A DNA stretch of 64,000 bases from an uncultured Alphaproteobacteria bacterium (GTDB lineage: Bacteria > Pseudomonadota > Alphaproteobacteria > CAAHEQ01 > UBA3637). The number at the start of each line of letters is the position of its first letter. The first letter of the stretch is position 1. The notes under the pieces are model-generated. The model saw only the letters and a list, made by a program, of their open reading frames with translations. It made no database searches and was not told where the DNA came from. Made by a program: the position numbers and the translations under genes. Location: positions 13,513-77,512 of the forward strand of contig CANQUX010000005.1 of NCBI GenBank assembly GCA_947627155.1, read 5' to 3'. Of this stretch, positions 8,081 to 27,273 are shown in pieces.

Positions 8081-8802
8081 TATCGTCTTTCGCCTAAAAA
8101 ATTTAATAAAAATTGAAACAAGTTCACAAAATCCAAATACAGAGATAACGCCCCTGTAATAACAACCGTATCTTGCACCTCCGTATTGCCGAGGGATTGA
8201 TAATAAAACGTTTTCAACCGTTGCGTATCATAAGCAACCAGACCTGCAAAAATGAAAACACCCAAAACGGATACGACAAACGAAACCATTGAGGAAGCCA
8301 AGAAAATATTCACAATCATCGCCACAATCATACCGATTAAGCCCATCACCAAAAACGAGCCGAAACCGGTTAAATCCCGCTTTGTGGCACTGCCCCAAAC
8401 ACTTAATCCCAAAAATGAAACCGCCGTAATTAAAAATGTTTGTACAACGGAAGACGGCACATAAACGGTAAAAACACTGCCCATGGATAAACCGAACAAA
8501 GCGGCAAACAACCAAAAATAAAAATTCGCTTTGGCAACATTTAAATGACCGGCCGCATTTTGAATCATAAAAATTAACACAAACGGTGCCAATAACACCA
8601 CCCACCCCAATACCGACAAACTCACTTTATCGGGTTGTACGGTATAAAGCAGGCGCACGAGCGGTTCCTGCGTGGAGGCATACGCCGTTAAGCCGGATAA
8701 AACAAGGCTGCCCGCCATATATTGATAAATTTTACCGAAAAATGCCCGCAGACCCTCCGCCGGACGTTCAACGGCTTTTGTTCGGGGTAAATTCATATTC
8801 AT
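8080..8802 (-). CDS. Bax inhibitor-1/YccA family membrane protein
   Basis: Seven TM helices and the motif AGLVAYDTQRLK. Confidence 0.6.
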   Translation of the reverse strand: MNMNLPRTKAVERPAEGLRAFFGKIYQYMAGSLVLSGLTAYASTQEPLVRLLYTVQPDKVSLSVLGWVVLLAPFVLIFMIQNAAGHLNVAKANFYFWLFAALFGLSMGSVFTVYVPSSVVQTFLITAVSFLGLSVWGSATKRDLTGFGSFLVMGLIGMIVAMIVNIFLASSMVSFVVSVLGVFIFAGLVAYDTQRLKTFYYQSLGNTEVQDTVVITGALSLYLDFVNLFQFLLNFLGERR

Positions 8803-18667: not shown

Positions 18668-18746
18668 TTTTTTTAATCATACATATTGCTTTTTGTTCAA
18701 AACAACCTATATGTGTATGTCATCAAAAAAAGAAAGAAGGTTACTC

Positions 18747-20603
18747 ATGACGGAAAAAGAAGAACAAAAAATCGAGTTTAAAGCCGAAGTCAGCAAGGTT
18801 TTGGATATTGTGATTCATTCATTATATTCCAATAATGAAATTTTCTTACGCGAATTGATTTCAAACGCCTCGGACGCGTGTGACAAATTGCGTTATGCCC
18901 TGCTCATTCACCCGGATTTATCCAAAGAAGCTTCGGCGTTTAAAATTACGTTAACTCCCGATTCGAAAGCCGATACGCTCACCGTTACCGATAACGGCAT
19001 CGGCATGGATAAAGAAGATTTAATCAATCATTTGGGCACCATTGCCCGATCGGGTTCTGCCGAATTCATCAAATCTTTAACGGGGGATAAACAAAAAGAT
19101 ATGGCCTTAATCGGACAATTCGGCGTGGGATTTTATGCCGCTTTTATGGTGGCGGACAGCGTGACCGTCAAAACGCGGAAAGCCGGCACCGATACCGGTT
19201 ATGTGTGGACATCGGCCGGCGCCGATTCGTTCACGATAACGCCGGCGGAAAAATTGCCGGTCGGCACCAGCGTGATTTTGCACTTAAAACCCGATGCCAA
19301 AGAATATTTGGAACCGATTCGGTTGCGTCATCTTGTACGACAATATTCCGATCACATTTCTTTACCGATTATTTTGAAAGAAGGCGATAAAGAAGAAACA
19401 ATCAATTCGGCCAGCGCTTTATGGACGCGCAAAAAAACCGATATCACGCCTGAACAATATAAAGATTTTTATCAATCCGTTTCGCATGCTTTTGATGATC
19501 CGTGGATGACGCTTCATTATAAAGCCGAAGGCGTGATTGACTATACGGCTTTATTGTTCGTGCCGACAAAACCGCCGTTTAATTTATTTCAACCCGATCG
19601 AAAATCCGGCCTGCAATTATATGTCAACAAAGTGTTTATTTCCGATGATATTCCCGATTTAATGCCGTTCTATCTGCGGTTTGTGACCGGGGTTATCGAC
19701 ACCAACGATTTACCGCTGAACGTAAGTCGTGAAATGTTGCAAAAAACGCCCGTGATGAGTAAAATTAAAAAGGGCATTGTCAAACATTTATTAACGGAAT
19801 TGAAAAAACGTGCCGAAGATAAAGCCGATTACCAAAAGTTTTGGGACAGTTTCGGTATTGTCTTTAAAGAAGGTCTTTATGAACCGATTGACGAAAGAGA
19901 AGAAGTTGCCGAATTATGCCGATTCCACGTTTCCGCCTCCGATGATCTCATCAGTTTTGCCGATTACGTAGGGCTGATGAAACAAAATCAGGAAAATATT
20001 TATTATTTATCCGGCTCCGATTTGGCCACCTTAAAAACAAATCCGCAACTGGAAGGATTTTCGGCACGCGGTATTCCCGTTTTATTGTTGACTGATCCGA
20101 TTGATGAGTTCTGGGTGCAAACATTTACGGAATATAAAGGCAAAAAAATTATTTCGGTCATGCATGCCAAAAACGATTTGGAAAAAATTAAACCCGAATC
20201 GGAACCGGCGGGTGATAAATTGGAAAAAGCCGATGAATTAACCAAACGAATCAAAGAAATTTTAGGCGATAAAATCAATTCGGTACAAGTGACCGATCGA
20301 CTCACCAAAAGCCCCATGGCGCTTATCACGCCCGAAGGACAAATGAGCCTTCACCTGGAACGCTTAATGAAAGCCAACGGACAACAAATTGCCTATGCCA
20401 GCGACCGAATCGTCGAGATTAATCCGCGTCATCCGCTGATTCATAAACTGGCCGAGCTTGTCAGCCGGAAAGAAGCGCCGGAAAAAGTGGCCGATGCCGT
20501 TTGGGTGTTGTATGATCAAGCCTTAATTGCGGAAGGCGAAAATATTTCCGATCCGGCGGCCTTTACCGACCGACTCGGAAAATTTATGTTGTCAGGTTTA
20601 TAA
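18747..20603 (+). CDS. htpG: Molecular chaperone HtpG (Hsp90)
   Basis: GHKL ATPase motif LISNASDACDKLRY; RBS-supported start MTEKEEQ at 18747. Confidence 0.95.
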   Translation: MTEKEEQKIEFKAEVSKVLDIVIHSLYSNNEIFLRELISNASDACDKLRYALLIHPDLSKEASAFKITLTPDSKADTLTVTDNGIGMDKEDLINHLGTIARSGSAEFIKSLTGDKQKDMALIGQFGVGFYAAFMVADSVTVKTRKAGTDTGYVWTSAGADSFTITPAEKLPVGTSVILHLKPDAKEYLEPIRLRHLVRQYSDHISLPIILKEGDKEETINSASALWTRKKTDITPEQYKDFYQSVSHAFDDPWMTLHYKAEGVIDYTALLFVPTKPPFNLFQPDRKSGLQLYVNKVFISDDIPDLMPFYLRFVTGVIDTNDLPLNVSREMLQKTPVMSKIKKGIVKHLLTELKKRAEDKADYQKFWDSFGIVFKEGLYEPIDEREEVAELCRFHVSASDDLISFADYVGLMKQNQENIYYLSGSDLATLKTNPQLEGFSARGIPVLLLTDPIDEFWVQTFTEYKGKKIISVMHAKNDLEKIKPESEPAGDKLEKADELTKRIKEILGDKINSVQVTDRLTKSPMALITPEGQMSLHLERLMKANGQQIAYASDRIVEINPRHPLIHKLAELVSRKEAPEKVADAVWVLYDQALIAEGENISDPAAFTDRLGKFMLSGL

Positions 20604-20634
20604 AAACCTCATCTCGTTTTCTTTCAGTTTTAAA

Positions 20635-20664
20635 ATCCCTGCCGATTCGCAGGGATTTTTTTTA
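20635..20664 (+). terminator. Rho-independent terminator following htpG
   Basis: ATCCCTGC..GCAGGGAT stem followed by T8. Confidence 0.6.
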
Positions 20665-21060
20665 ATGTATTCAAAAGAACAAAAAAATAATTCGATTTAT
20701 TAAAAAAATATTTAAAAAAGTAAATAAAAACAACCTGTTTTTCAAAAAAATATTCATAAAACACCCCTTTTTCGAAAAAACGAATCAAAAAATAAAATAA
20801 AAATTTTTAAATTCAAAAGATTATAATTATATGCGTTTTTTTGCCTTTCCTATTTTTCGGCTTTTATACCTTTTTGTCCAGTTTGTCAAAAACCATACGA
20901 AAAAATCGTTCAAAAAAATGCTTATTTTTGAATGCATTTTAAAAAAAATTTTTTTTATGGCAAAAAACGTTTGACATTTTAATATCAGACATGCTAACTG
21001 GAATCAGTAAAAACAAATTTTCTACCATATCTTGTGTTTATTTGATAAAAGGAGTACTAT

Positions 21061-23121
21061 ATGTTGGGCGTTGTACAAGGCGAAGACAAAAACAATATTG
21101 ATTTGGGACCTTTAACCGAAGTCATTAAACGGGACGGTGCCCGGCATGCATTTGATGCCTCCAAAATTGCCATGGCCATCACGCGCGCCGGTGAAGCCAC
21201 AAACGAATTCGGCACCGATGAAGCTTGGTTATTAACACGGCAGGTCATTAAGGTTTTAAAACATAAATTTGCTTTCGGACATATTCCCGCCATTGAGCAA
21301 ATTCAAGATGTTGTCGAACAGGTTTTAATTTCCTCGAATTACTATAAAACGGCGCGCTCTTATATTGTTTATCGCGAACAACGGGATAAAATTCGCAAAG
21401 ACAAGCATGCTGCCATTGATGCCATTTCCTCCATTAACGAATATTTGGATCGTTCCGATTGGCGGGTGAATGCCAATGCCAATCAGGGTTATTCGCTCGG
21501 CGGCTTAATTTTAAACGTGTCGGGAAAAGTGGTTGCCAACTATTGGTTAAATCACGTTTACACGCCGGAAATCGGTGAAGCGCACCGCAACGGTGATTAT
21601 CACATTCACGATTTGGATATGTTATCGGGTTATTGTGCCGGCTGGTCGTTACGGGTGTTATTAACGGAAGGATTTAACGGCGTACCGAATAAAGTGGAAT
21701 CAAAACCGCCGCGTCATTTGGTTTCGGCATTCAGTCAAATGATTAACTTTTTAGGAACGCTGCAAAACGAATGGGCAGGCGCACAAGCCTTTTCATCGGC
21801 CGATACTTATTTAGCACCCTTCGTACGCATTGAAAAACTATCGTATGAAGATGTCAAGCAAGCCATGCAATCTTTTATCTTCAACTTAAACGTGCCGTCA
21901 CGCTGGGGAACACAAACACCGTTTACGAATTTAACGTTTGACTGGACGTGTCCCGATGATTTAAAAGATCGTCATCCGATTATCGGCGGTGTGGAACAAG
22001 ATTTTGTTTACGGCGATTTACAAAAAGAAATGGATATGATCAATCGGGCCTTTTTGGAAGTAATGGGTGCCGGTGATGCCAAAGGTCGACCGTTTACATT
22101 CCCGATTCCCACTTATAATATTACCGATGAGTTTCCGTGGGATTCGCCCAACACCGAATATTTGTTTGAAATGACGGCAAAATACGGCCTGCCTTATTTT
22201 TCAAACTATTTAAATTCCGATATGAAGCCGAGTGACATTCGTTCCATGTGCTGCCGGTTACGGTTAGACTTAACCGAATTGAAAAAACGGGGCGGAGGTT
22301 TATTCGGTTCGGCCGAACAAACGGGATCCATCGGCGTTGTCACCATTAACTGCGCCCGACTGGGTTATTTATTCAAAGGACAGAAAGAAGCGTTATATAA
22401 ACGGTTGGACGAATTATTGGATTTAGCCAAAACATCGTTGGAAATTAAACGGAAAACCATTTCCATGCATATGGACAGAGGGTTATATCCCTATACGCGG
22501 CGGTATTTGGGAACCTTCCGCAACCACTTTTCAACCATCGGTGTGAACGGTATCAATGAAATGATTCGTAACTTCACAAATGATATGGAAAACATTACCA
22601 CCGAATACGGTCGTACGTTTGCCAAAGATTTTTTAACGCATATTCGTGAAAAAATGCTGGAATTCCAAGCTGAAACAGGTAATATGTATAATTTGGAAGC
22701 AACCCCGGCGGAAGGAACGACATATCGTTTTGCCAAGGAGGATCAAAAACGGTACAGCGGTATTATTCAAGCCGGCACCAAAGAGGCGCCTTACTATACC
22801 AACTCTTCTCAATTGCCGGCCGGCTTTACGGATGATCCGTTCAAAGCACTGGATTATCAGGATGACTTACAAACGCAATATACCGGCGGCACCGTTTTAC
22901 ACTTATACATGAGTGAACGCATTTCATCGGCATCAGCTTGTAAAGCGCTGATTCGGCGTGTTCTGGAAAATTATCGGTTACCTTATGTATCGGTCACACC
23001 GGTTTATTCCATTTGCCCGAAACACGGCTACATTGCCGGCGAACACAAATACTGCCCCCTCTGCGATCAGGAATTGATTGAGAAAAAACGCAAAGAATTG
23101 GAAGCGGCAGGTAACTTTTAA
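21061..23121 (+). CDS. nrdD: Anaerobic ribonucleoside-triphosphate reductase (class III) large polypeptide. It ends after the Zn-ribbon and lacks the glycyl-radical motif
   Basis: Class III RNR core, plus a C-terminal CxxC...CxxC ribbon (ICPKHGY...CPLC). Confidence 0.9.
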   Translation: MLGVVQGEDKNNIDLGPLTEVIKRDGARHAFDASKIAMAITRAGEATNEFGTDEAWLLTRQVIKVLKHKFAFGHIPAIEQIQDVVEQVLISSNYYKTARSYIVYREQRDKIRKDKHAAIDAISSINEYLDRSDWRVNANANQGYSLGGLILNVSGKVVANYWLNHVYTPEIGEAHRNGDYHIHDLDMLSGYCAGWSLRVLLTEGFNGVPNKVESKPPRHLVSAFSQMINFLGTLQNEWAGAQAFSSADTYLAPFVRIEKLSYEDVKQAMQSFIFNLNVPSRWGTQTPFTNLTFDWTCPDDLKDRHPIIGGVEQDFVYGDLQKEMDMINRAFLEVMGAGDAKGRPFTFPIPTYNITDEFPWDSPNTEYLFEMTAKYGLPYFSNYLNSDMKPSDIRSMCCRLRLDLTELKKRGGGLFGSAEQTGSIGVVTINCARLGYLFKGQKEALYKRLDELLDLAKTSLEIKRKTISMHMDRGLYPYTRRYLGTFRNHFSTIGVNGINEMIRNFTNDMENITTEYGRTFAKDFLTHIREKMLEFQAETGNMYNLEATPAEGTTYRFAKEDQKRYSGIIQAGTKEAPYYTNSSQLPAGFTDDPFKALDYQDDLQTQYTGGTVLHLYMSERISSASACKALIRRVLENYRLPYVSVTPVYSICPKHGYIAGEHKYCPLCDQELIEKKRKELEAAGNF

Positions 23122-23288
23122 AACAGGGAGAAAACCATGAGTCAAAAACCTCAACAAACAAAAAAGAAAATCTCAACGCAAAAGCCGTTTGTTTGGCTCC
23201 CTCGTTCCGAAAAGAAAGAAAAGGGACTTCGGCAATTGTCGTTTGATGATTACTTGAAAAAAACAAACCAACATACGAAAGGATAACC

Positions 23289-23477
23289 ATGACAGATACC
23301 GAAATTTTAAAAAACCACGAACAAGAACGTCAACCCGTCGAATGCTGGACACGCGTAATGGGTTACTTCCGTCCGTACAGTCAATTCAATAAAGGGAAAA
23401 AATCGGAATTCAACGAACGCCAATGGTTCCTTGAAGAAAAATGCAATTGTGCCCGTACAACCGAAAAAGCTGCTTAA
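23289..23477 (+). CDS. Small protein carrying an NrdD-type glycyl-radical motif; candidate stand-alone radical domain
   Basis: TRVMGYFRPYSQFNKGKKSEFNERQ resembles the NrdD C-terminal RVCGY...N.GK..EF region. It lies between nrdD and nrdG. Confidence 0.55.
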   Translation: MTDTEILKNHEQERQPVECWTRVMGYFRPYSQFNKGKKSEFNERQWFLEEKCNCARTTEKAA

Positions 23478-23489
23478 TCGGAGTTTATC

Positions 23490-24269: not shown

Positions 24270-25487
24270 ATGGCGGAGATAAAACAAACACCCGATATTC
24301 CCGTTGAAGAAACCGAATTGAATCTCTCTTCTTTTGATTTTCAACAACAGTTGGAACTGTTAAATCGTCAAAAAGCCGATTTGTTGCATCGAAAAAAAGT
24401 GGCCGATCATTTTTCTCAAACCGCCCAGCGAAAATTAGATGAAATTGATGAGCAAATTTTAATTATTAAAGGCTTTTTGGGCGAAAAAGACACCAATGAA
24501 ATCAAGCCTTTGGAAGTGTTTGATGATAAAACAAACGAACGCTTCCAGGCAAATCCCGCACCCCAAAAATTTGAGCCGCGTTTAATTGTGAAAGGCAAAC
24601 AGGAGGAAGACGCGGAAAACGAAGAAACCGAAAAGAAAGAAAAAGAAGCTTTCACGCAACAAGCGCAGCCCAATCAGCCGCAACAACCGCAACAGCCGCG
24701 AACACCCCCGCAACCCAATCAACCGCAGCAACCGCAACAGCAGCCGGAATTAACCCCTGCCGAACGATTGGAACAAATTCGGCAAAAACTTACGCAACGC
24801 GATCCGCGCAAGCAAAAAGAAGGGTTGGAGGAGTTGAAAAAACCCGAAAACAAAGAGCTGGGTAAAGATGATCCGGTGTTTCAAAAATTGAAAAAAAATG
24901 CCGAAAAACGTGTCCAACGTTTTGATAAGATTCGCGAGAGTTTGCGCAAAAACTTAAAAACGTTAATGCAGTCCGATTCGGAAGTCGTTAAAAAAAATTT
25001 GGATCACATTCGTGCCGGTCGAATCGGTATGGGTATGGCCGGTATGAAAGAAATCGGCAAAACAACCGATCCGCGTTTTAATGATGTTGCCAAAGCAGCC
25101 CAGGGATTGTTTGAAAACGTCAGTGCCCTTTATAAGGAATTCGGCATTAAGCCCGAAGAAGCACTTTCTCGGGAAGCGCTTAATGAAGCAAAACCCACAT
25201 TTACCCGACAAATGGGCTTTAAATCGAAAGAAGATAAAGACATTGATCGCAATTCGGGTCAAAACCGTTGGTTAGGACAATCGAACGAGTTGAGCGAAGA
25301 AGAACGACACACTTATAAGAAAATTAAAGATATTTACGGTGTTGAGGTGGATAAATTACCGCCGGTTGATGCGCAAACACAAAAAGATATGTGGATTATA
25401 CGGGAAATTATTAAAGAAACAGCCCAAACAACCACAACCAAAATTAAACCGGCTTTATTGATGCAATCGGGCGGAAACTCTTTATAA
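24270..25487 (+). CDS. Hypothetical charged protein with Gln/Pro-rich tandem repeats (QPQQPQQP...)
   Basis: ORF only. Low-complexity repeats at about 24660-24750; no recognizable domain. Confidence 0.5.
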   Translation: MAEIKQTPDIPVEETELNLSSFDFQQQLELLNRQKADLLHRKKVADHFSQTAQRKLDEIDEQILIIKGFLGEKDTNEIKPLEVFDDKTNERFQANPAPQKFEPRLIVKGKQEEDAENEETEKKEKEAFTQQAQPNQPQQPQQPRTPPQPNQPQQPQQQPELTPAERLEQIRQKLTQRDPRKQKEGLEELKKPENKELGKDDPVFQKLKKNAEKRVQRFDKIRESLRKNLKTLMQSDSEVVKKNLDHIRAGRIGMGMAGMKEIGKTTDPRFNDVAKAAQGLFENVSALYKEFGIKPEEALSREALNEAKPTFTRQMGFKSKEDKDIDRNSGQNRWLGQSNELSEEERHTYKKIKDIYGVEVDKLPPVDAQTQKDMWIIREIIKETAQTTTTKIKPALLMQSGGNSL

Positions 25488-25833: not shown

Positions 25834-27273
25834 ATGGAAGAACAGACACAAATTATCGGCGAGTGGGAAAAAGTATACGGTGCTTTGGAAAAAGAAGTCA
25901 ATAACCGATTGGTTATGAAGTGGCTGAAACGCAGTATTCCCGAAAAAACCGATTCGAATCGCGTTTGTTTGGCCTTTCCGTCTCCCTGTATCGAAGAGGT
26001 GATTAAGCGCAATTATGCACATCAGATTTTAAATATTTGGCAACGGGAAAATCCGGCCGTCACTGCTCTTGATTTTAAAGTTTTATCACCTCAAAATAAA
26101 AATAACAGCGCTCCTTTACCGGCCGCCGACTCTTGTGAATTGCAACCGATTGTCGATTCTGCCGAATCACAACCGATTGTTGTCGATAAAATGAAGCGTT
26201 ACGGCTTCTCAAAGGTTGAAATTGATGTAACGAGCGATAGCGAAACAATTCCCTGTTATTTAGACGAATCGCATACGTTTGATCAATTTGTTGTCGGGCA
26301 ATCAAATGTTTTTGCTTATGAAGCCGCACGCCGGGTGGCCGAAGATGAAAAAGATGTGTTTAATCCGCTTTACATTCATGCGCCGGTGGGATTGGGCAAA
26401 ACGCATTTATTACATGCCGTTGCCTGGCGCGTAAAAGAACTGTATCCCGATAAAAACGTGCTTTATATTTCCTCGGAACAATTTTTCCAATATTTTTTAA
26501 AGGCGTTACGAAACAAAAAAACCGATTCGTTTCGTGATTTATTCCGCGCGGTCGATATTTTAATGATTGATGATATTCAATTTATCTGCGGGAAAAAAGC
26601 AACGCAGGAAGAGTTTTTTCACACGTTTAATCAACTGATTGCCTGCGGGAAAAAAGTGATTTTATCATCCGATTCGCACCCCATGGATCTGGTTGAAATG
26701 CAAGAACGCTTAAAAACCCGTATTGCCCAAGGGCTGGTTGTTCATATTGAGCCGACAACTTATGAATTGCGACTGGGTATTTTACGGGAAAAAGGAAAGC
26801 ATTTACCCGTTCAAATCAGTGACGAAGTTTTAGATTTTCTGGCAAAAAACATTACCGGCAGCATTCGGGAATTGGAAGGGGCATTAAAGCGATTGACGGC
26901 ACATGCGCAAATTATGGGAACGCCCATCAATCCGCAAACCACCCGAAGCGTTTTAAAAGATATGTTGCAAGTTTATGATCGGCAATTTTCAGTAAACGAA
27001 ATTCAACGTGTTACGGCCGATTACTATCATTTAAAATTATCTGACATACAATCATCCCGTCGAGATCGAAAAATTGCGCGGCCGCGGCAAATGGCCATGT
27101 ATTTGGCCAAAACGGCAACGGCTTTATCGCTTCCCGATATCGGTCGGCGATTCGGGCGTGATCACACTACGGTCATGCATGCCGTTAAAACCATTGAAGA
27201 TTTAATGAGTCGGGATAAGCAATTATGCCAAGATAAAGAAAACATTTTAATGCGGTTAAGGGAGGGTGTATGA
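25834..27273 (+). CDS. dnaA: Chromosomal replication initiator protein DnaA
   Basis: AAA+ Walker A GLGKTHLLHAV and a C-terminal DnaA-box-binding domain (MAMYLAK...HTTVMHA). Confidence 0.95.
   Translation: MEEQTQIIGEWEKVYGALEKEVNNRLVMKWLKRSIPEKTDSNRVCLAFPSPCIEEVIKRNYAHQILNIWQRENPAVTALDFKVLSPQNKNNSAPLPAADSCELQPIVDSAESQPIVVDKMKRYGFSKVEIDVTSDSETIPCYLDESHTFDQFVVGQSNVFAYEAARRVAEDEKDVFNPLYIHAPVGLGKTHLLHAVAWRVKELYPDKNVLYISSEQFFQYFLKALRNKKTDSFRDLFRAVDILMIDDIQFICGKKATQEEFFHTFNQLIACGKKVILSSDSHPMDLVEMQERLKTRIAQGLVVHIEPTTYELRLGILREKGKHLPVQISDEVLDFLAKNITGSIRELEGALKRLTAHAQIMGTPINPQTTRSVLKDMLQVYDRQFSVNEIQRVTADYYHLKLSDIQSSRRDRKIARPRQMAMYLAKTATALSLPDIGRRFGRDHTTVMHAVKTIEDLMSRDKQLCQDKENILMRLREGV

Follow-up and report, generated by a model that had tools for sequence, protein, structure and literature searches.

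A probable two-subunit anaerobic ribonucleotide reductase whose glycyl-radical loop is encoded by a separate small gene

In the 64-kb window (the whole stretch of alphaproteobacterial DNA analysed here), the catalytic polypeptide of a class III ribonucleotide reductase (RNR), NrdD, is naturally divided between its zinc ribbon and its glycyl-radical loop. The two pieces belong to a block of four same-strand genes identified from the ORF listing and the sequence (nrdD, a 49-aa ORF, a 62-aa ORF and nrdG; Table 1), which in all likelihood form a functional operon for an obligate two-subunit reductase, with a separately encoded and probably replaceable radical piece. Glycyl-radical enzymes are usually described as single chains, in which a buried C-terminal loop must swing out to the activase. 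Each of the three genes behind nrdD follows a Shine-Dalgarno-like sequence of its own (GGGAG at 23126-23130 for the 49-aa ORF, AAGGA at 23279-23283 for the 62-aa ORF and GGAG at 23480-23483 for nrdG), and terminator and Rfam scans found no terminator-like sites or Rfam families inside the four-gene block. The product of nrdG, which the initial annotation rightly took to be intact, scores 202.5 bits against TIGR02495 NrdG2 (cut-off 131) and also matches PF04055, placing beside nrdD in the window the NrdG-type radical-SAM activase expected of a class III RNR.

Table 1. Coordinates of the nrdD block and its putative control elements in the window.
Feature	Position	Strand	Basis or remark
TTGACA hexamer, likely -35 element of the operon promoter	20971..20976	+	position shared with ~25 relatives
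NrdR-box-like palindromic operator CTACCATATCTTGTGT	21022..21037	.	matrix score 13.3 bits
nrdD, large subunit, 686 aa	21061..23121	+	ATP-cone, catalytic barrel and zinc ribbon; without glycyl-radical loop
49-aa lysine-rich ORF, narrow lineage-specific small gene at the split junction	23137..23286	+	conservation, dN/dS
Small subunit, 62 aa, with glycyl-radical loop ERQPVECWTRVMGYFRP and FN.GK.SEF..R tail	23289..23477	+	NrdD profile matches
nrdG, radical-SAM activase, 229 aa	23490..24179	+	TIGR02495 NrdG2 and PF04055

The large protein has the barrel of a class III NrdD by both profiles searched: PF13597 covers residues 139-671 (E 1e-173, profile positions 2-532 of 562) and NCBIfam NF006126 matches with 1135 bits (cut-off 548) over profile positions 3-661 of 684. 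The ATP-cone family PF03477 occupies residues 20-110. It aligns with residues 100-614 of the Thermotoga maritima NrdD chain (4COI). The finger-loop motif S395-M396-C397-C398-R399, for which a catalytic role is predicted, is invariant in nine homologues and fits the Met-Cys-Cys-Arg type (PMC9669993). Its zinc ribbon, initially read as CxxC...CxxC, proved to be C652-x2-H655 ... C665-x2-C668 (ICPKH...CPLC) with one histidine ligand, and all four residues are invariant across nine split and fused homologues. As had been claimed from the sequence, the chain ends 18 residues past CPLC and lacks a glycyl-radical segment; RVxGY is available only in trans.

That missing segment is found on the 62-aa ORF, a stand-alone protein with the radical glycine motif. 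The likeness to the NrdD C-terminus that had been noted for it was confirmed by matches at the very ends of both profiles: positions 531-561 of 562 in PF13597 (31.9 bits against a cut-off of 26.2, E 7.7e-8) and positions 649-681, the C-terminal end of the profile, in NF006126. It aligns with residues 612-644 of the 4COI chain, so that the two pieces adjoin each other like the parts of a fused enzyme, at the linker between ribbon and glycyl loop. PF13597 NRDD was the only significant Pfam match of the small protein, which has no homology to PF01228, and T. maritima NrdD gave its only PDB profile matches. Within its RVMGY loop, Gly25 is the predicted radical site; RVMGY is present in 30 of 30 homologues, across which 23 columns are invariant. 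The gene does lie downstream of nrdD, at an exact distance of 167 nt from stop to ATG, in place of the approximately 165 nt first estimated, and the 64-kb window holds no second copy.

The two-piece enzyme proposed as one option in the initial annotation is thus upheld, but its 'autonomous radical domain' needs qualification: an AlphaFold model of the 62-aa protein alone is largely unstructured (mean pLDDT 57, Gly loop below 50). Such disorder is consistent with folding upon docking, and on this model the protein looks more like a peptide subunit that folds when docked than a self-folding domain. As a separate observation, its C-terminal tail carries a C-x-C or C-C pair, which in the window is C-N-C at residues 52-54 (23442-23450). 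At least 90% of the gut alphaproteobacterial group retain C54; Ralstonia, Cupriavidus, Bradyrhizobium and many phage copies lack the pair. The arrangement is reminiscent of the redox-shuttle cysteine pairs that class I and II reductases bear on their tails.

A homologue search with the 62-aa protein returned 267 clusters (90% identity) of 57-86-aa proteins at 64-85% identity, and a profile search of 1.84 billion representatives (50% identity) yielded 3631 matches at E<=1e-3, of which 704 reached E<=1e-10. When the best 150 among these 704 strong representatives were inspected, almost all proved to be small proteins of 52-120 aa, and the small proteins have the common core ERQxCE[VI]WTRVMGY[FH]RP..FN.GK..E..R. 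Scanning one genome per species gave at least 569 matching stretches, from which 80 loci were kept for analysis. At every one of the 80, the small gene is a stand-alone ORF with its own Shine-Dalgarno sequence, and it is fused at none; where nrdD is present (52 loci), it invariably stops before the small gene and encodes a loop-less large subunit, and at almost all operon loci the small gene is followed by nrdG. Junctions between nrdD and the small gene range from -4 to 197 nt and fall into all three frame classes. Most relatives lack the 49-aa ORF and have junctions of 10-40 nt with a GGAGG-type Shine-Dalgarno sequence; the shortest are a 4-nt overlap in Ralstonia solanacearum and gaps of 1-4 nt at loci L016 and L018. 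Both nrdD pieces are under purifying selection, with dN/dS of 0.01-0.04 for the large and 0.05-0.15 for the small gene, and of 0.12-0.17 for nrdG, in comparisons where synonymous sites are near saturation. Aligned with the orthologues of its relatives, the split is therefore conserved, the opposite of a gene that is fused in all of them and degenerate only here, as had been considered initially.

The closest relatives of the window are loci L087-L092, which include a rabbit-gut alphaproteobacterial metagenome-assembled genome (MAG) whose NrdD is 98% identical to that of the window and whose DNA is 86-87% identical over ~7.5 kb of the 8.2-kb L087. Their layout is the same as that of the window (htpG-nrdD-49aa-62aa-nrdG-403aa-dnaA), in independent assemblies from NCBI, ENA and Logan. 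Farther afield, the small protein matches 161 records in a plasmid collection. Plasmid pHG1 of Cupriavidus necator H16 encodes a 676-aa 'ribonucleoside triphosphate reductase', a 66-aa 'nrdD' and nrdG, with the accessions WP_011154155.1, WP_011154154.1 and WP_011154153.1; the overlapping genes of R. solanacearum encode 685 aa and a 58-aa 'hypothetical protein'; and nrdD is split likewise in Bradyrhizobium and Paracoccus. Where it deals with NrdDG, a genome paper gives the C. metallidurans enzyme as Rmet_5137 and Rmet_5139, omitting the intervening gene, and states that C. necator H16 cannot denitrify without its NrdDG (PMC2864759). As H16 has the same split layout, this report offers indirect evidence of a split enzyme working in vivo. 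Fused members of the subfamily also exist: that of Actinomyces oris (...CDKCAELHPEAEPVECEVWTRVMGYFRP...) has a 10-residue linker from the ribbon to CEVWTRVMGY, and others are protein fragments P0194 and P0257 and 22 viral loci.

The presence of a 49-aa ORF between the two pieces had been described correctly, but its coordinates were off by one (23138..23287), and it does not lie in a different frame from nrdD. It begins at TAA + 15 nt after nrdD in the nrdD frame, and it is the small ORF and nrdG that occupy another. It keeps a constant length of 49 aa in L087-L092 and has a 60-aa syntenic homologue in L004, with which it shares the motif F.W ... Q[LM][ST]F[DG]DYLK. Its dN/dS is 0.11-0.12, with 12 synonymous and 8 non-synonymous differences between the window and L087. 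Only four near-identical clusters were found among 5.8 billion proteins, and no Pfam or NCBIfam family matched. In our reading it is a genuine small gene, young and lineage-specific, that has settled at the junction; a chance open frame was considered and rejected, given the retained length and a dN/dS of ~0.11 in the nearest relatives. Readthrough of the nrdD stop (window 23119-23139) would append ~54 residues, though the shared frame may be chance; in L004, the spacing between nrdD and the homologue is the stop + 12 nt, again in the same frame.

Approximately 26 of the 80 genome loci are orphans, in which the small gene stands with neither nrdD nor nrdG within 6 kb. Their contexts are conserved within lineages yet unrelated to each other, such as between a porin-like and a transglutaminase-like gene or beside rnhA and infC. 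Six MAGs hold an orphan together with a full operon, and a seventh is the nearest relative of the window itself (L007 with L087). Orphans retain the invariant core, with an orphan-orphan dN/dS of 0.26. Judged by sequence identities, several independent duplications appear to have occurred; L012 and L017, from the same MAG, are for instance separated by a dS of 0.30. On plasmid pALVIN01 of the cultured Allochromatium vinosum (102 kb), a 69-aa orphan annotated as 'nrdD' (L085, 2974-3183) adjoins a CHAP-domain gene, with the large subunit and activase absent nearby.

Phages also carry the small gene. The loop sequence occurs at 80 loci in IMG/VR, and on ~49 viral contigs the small gene stands alone, without nrdD or nrdG within 4 kb. 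Phage genes adjoin it on all ten orphan contigs that were checked, including those for baseplate wedge, tail fibre, integrase, Holliday-junction resolvase, Cas4-like exonuclease, DNA ligase and DNA polymerase. Large subunits were sought on viral contigs with two peptide patterns only, which found 75 contigs; by contig name, none of these was among the ~49 orphan contigs, which may be incomplete. The nrdD-bearing viral loci examined (L173-L238) comprise 30 split, 22 fused and 14 that could be placed in neither class; most of the fused loci belong to a single group of 48-kb phages, whose NrdD has 606 aa and no cone. Gene order varies: on a 94-kb viral contig (L231, 638-3486) it is small gene (54 aa), nrdG and then nrdD (666 aa, ending after the ribbon), and in L117 and L229 (L229 1501-4496) it is nrdD-nrdG-small. 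In these permuted orders the small gene behaves as a mobile cistron of its own. Within the subfamily, many nrdD genes of phages (L203-L233) match in two to four pieces, 0.4-1 kb apart, which suggests interruption by introns, inteins or homing-endonuclease insertions and a possible route to the split form.

Upstream of nrdD, TTGAC(A) recurs ~85-95 nt 5' of the ATG in the window and in ~25 relatives, and the hexamer listed in Table 1 is likely to serve the operon promoter as its -35 element; the site at 20971 escaped the consensus promoter scan because its -10 hexamer is weak. A palindrome, aCAC[AT]ATATAT[AT]GTgt, lies 25-40 nt before the nrdD ATG at nearly every operon locus, and some have two, ~30 nt apart; this palindrome resembles the NrdR box consensus reported by Rodionov and Gelfand in 2005. 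We built an NrdR-like matrix from the boxes before nrdD in relatives and applied a cut-off of 11 bits. The box in the window is the sole site at or above this cut-off in the 64 kb, at a score that comes from a matrix of these same relatives; their own nrdD boxes, and those before some orphans, score much higher. A search upstream of nrdD for an FNR/CRP-type box (TTGAT-N4-ATCAA, up to two mismatches) found none. NrdR-like boxes also lie upstream of orphans L001, L009, L052, L056 and L058, none of which was used to build the matrix; those of L001 score 19.9 and 14.1 bits and are 30 nt apart. No upstream box reached 11 bits at orphans L003, L006, L007, L010, L011 and L019. At least some orphans therefore appear, from these predicted sites, to be co-regulated with ribonucleotide reduction. 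The matrix also hit AT[TA]CAAGATATTGT.G, ~230 nt inside nrdD at L025, L044, L048, L054, L057, L059 and L072; these hits correspond to the codons for IQDIV, which is conserved in the ATP-cone, and are probably a by-product of the coding sequence, not operators.

Could the division be an artefact or a wreck? The initial annotation had allowed for a sequencing error, and an indel that produced a false stop was a possibility a priori, but we regard its probability as negligible: the four-ORF structure is identical in the NCBI, ENA and Logan assemblies at 86-87% nucleotide identity, the split recurs in complete plasmid sequences of cultured strains, and a single indel cannot account for pieces that lie 167 nt apart with a conserved ORF between them. 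The other option raised there, a pseudogene in which an ancestral fused nrdD was broken in this genome by an insertion or frameshift and is now decaying, could draw on the existence of fused homologues and on a gap that is unusually long in the window and contains an extra ORF. It is nevertheless highly improbable, given that the split falls at one and the same junction in all 52 relatives with nrdD, that the small gene stands alone at all 80 loci with purifying selection on both pieces, that each gene has its own Shine-Dalgarno sequence, that nrdG is intact and that the same layout is found in bacteria that grow anaerobically. Equally improbable is that programmed frameshifting or stop readthrough fuses the pieces into one polypeptide. 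The adjacency of the genes and the overlapping or very short junctions in R. solanacearum, L016 and L018 would suit such recoding, but not the range of junction lengths and frames, nor the Shine-Dalgarno sequence and ATG that always precede the small ORF. In the window, recoding would have to bypass the 49-aa ORF; the gene order of L231 excludes frameshifting and readthrough at that locus, and where orphan or phage copies lack a neighbouring nrdD, recoding has nothing to join them to.

A neutral origin deserves more weight. Here, a mobile element would have inserted at the linker between ribbon and loop, the resulting genes-in-pieces would have been tolerated because their products can still assemble, and the orphan and phage copies would be incidental duplicates with no adaptive role as spare parts. 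Insertion followed by fixation would yield a conserved split equally well, phage nrdD genes of the subfamily are often interrupted by insertions of 0.4-1 kb, and the window has a small ORF inserted exactly at the junction; a precedent for a neutral split reportedly exists in phage Aeh1, whose nrdA was described by Friedrich et al. in 2007 as split by mobE. We nonetheless consider this account unlikely. Orphans are under purifying selection, hold lineage-conserved positions and in several cases sit behind putative NrdR-type operators, and dozens of viral contigs carry the small gene only; together, orphan selection, operators and phage copies suggest that the free-standing piece has a use of its own.

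We therefore favour the two-subunit reductase, and infer its assembly in trans, its site of activation and the rationale of replaceability as follows. The 686-aa subunit would provide allosteric control through its ATP-cone, the barrel with its cysteine finger loop and the zinc ribbon, and the 62-aa subunit the RVMGY loop and C-terminal tail. In glycyl-radical reductases, the activase recognises the RVxGY loop, which must exit the barrel for activation. NrdG would activate the small subunit, whether free or already docked, by removing a hydrogen atom from its Gly25; with the loop in the barrel next to the active-site cysteine, nucleotide reduction would start as in a fused NrdD. The glycyl-radical domain of NrdD is known to be mobile (PMC11226230), and oxygen cleaves a glycyl-radical chain at the radical glycine (PMC3019208). 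The split would thus put the sacrificial part on a cheap, replaceable protein of 62 residues and spare the 686-aa subunit, a rationale that we draw by analogy with known spare-part proteins. Orphan paralogues, some of them behind putative NrdR-type operators, and phage-borne genes could be an extra supply of the small subunit.

A bolder version, to which we give slightly less than even chances, is that the ~60-residue protein is an exchangeable radical 'cartridge': activated by NrdG off the enzyme, it would dock into a catalytic subunit that has no loop and be thrown away and replaced after cleavage by O2, with cells replenishing it from orphan genes, some of which seem to belong to the NrdR regulon. 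The existence of orphan and phage copies points to use of the free piece as an exchangeable part, and phages would carry the small gene alone to sustain anaerobic dNTP synthesis of the host during infection.

Compared with canonical single-chain class III NrdD and its NrdG, as known from T4, E. coli, T. maritima (4COI) and P. copri (8P23) and modelled in NF006126 and TIGR02487, the system shares the ATP-cone, the double-cysteine (MCCR) finger loop of the barrel and the C-terminal zinc ribbon. It also shares the RVxGY loop followed by the FN.GK..E tail and the adjacent radical-SAM activase, and has a putative NrdR-type operator. It differs in that loop and tail are encoded by a 62-aa ORF of their own, which has a separate ribosome-binding site, in its Cys-His-Cys-Cys zinc site, and in the further loop-gene copies found at other sites of related genomes and in phages. 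RNRs encoded in pieces include the class II NrdJa/NrdJb of Pseudomonas aeruginosa and the class I NrdA-a/NrdA-b of Aeromonas phage Aeh1, split by a homing-endonuclease gene. As in those, the catalytic chain of an RNR is predicted here to be made as two separately translated polypeptides that come together again; unlike in those, which differ in class and in the position of the split, it is the radical-bearing element itself that is isolated, and copies of the small piece have become dispersed as orphan genes and among phages.

A closer functional counterpart may be GrcA/YfiD, described in the passages of two papers that concern it as supplying the loop in trans to pyruvate formate-lyase (PMC8683613; PMC13450708). 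Like GrcA/YfiD, the protein studied here is a small, separately encoded carrier of a radical-glycine loop with a phage counterpart (T4 Y06I in the case of GrcA), and by analogy it would be expected to be activated by the cognate activase and inserted into a barrel that has no working loop. In contrast to GrcA/YfiD, it is about half the size and homologous to the NrdD C-terminus (PF13597) rather than to the PFL domain PF01228, and its partner never has a loop of its own, making the small protein an obligate subunit and more than a part for repair. According to the section of a June 2026 review that treats spare-part proteins (PMC13450708), formate lyases are the only enzymes for which they are known. 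Our search of the full-text-searchable literature, outside which much subscription literature lies, returned no description of a split NrdD or of an RNR spare part.

Split-NrdD genes have been in databases since pHG1 was sequenced, but are annotated piecemeal, with the small gene called a 'hypothetical protein' or a 60-aa 'nrdD', or omitted from genome papers (Rmet_5138). Annotation pipelines and RNR classifications could consequently score large subunits as truncated. If the cartridge reading holds, a spare-part system would be seen for the first time beyond the formate lyases, and no earlier glycyl-radical enzyme would be known to place its radical site obligately on another subunit. The 'spare part' idea would extend from pyruvate formate-lyase to the synthesis of DNA precursors. 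It could help to explain the upkeep of an oxygen-labile reductase in microaerotolerant gut and soil Proteobacteria, and would make the small gene a candidate auxiliary gene of phages. A free loop protein of 62 aa also offers an experimental handle, by which activation, docking and radical transfer become separable and the small piece alone can be isotope-labelled.

The operon lies between htpG (18693-20603), which is followed by a terminator-like hairpin at 20632-20659, and dnaA (25834-27270), whose start is ~1.65 kb past nrdG; with dnaA as a flank, the anaerobic reductase genes sit beside a probable replication-origin region. No NrdR-like site of at least 11 bits was found upstream of dnaA in the window; in L002, two NrdR-box-like sites 20 nt apart (8369-8404) lie ~110 nt before a 471-aa ORF that is dnaA by synteny. 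Between nrdG and dnaA, the window encodes a 405-aa protein (24270-25487) rich in Gln, Pro and Lys, with PQQPQQP repeats and 88% identity in relatives, whose counterparts have no Pfam family on record. The order of htpG, operon and dnaA is maintained in L087, L090 and L091.
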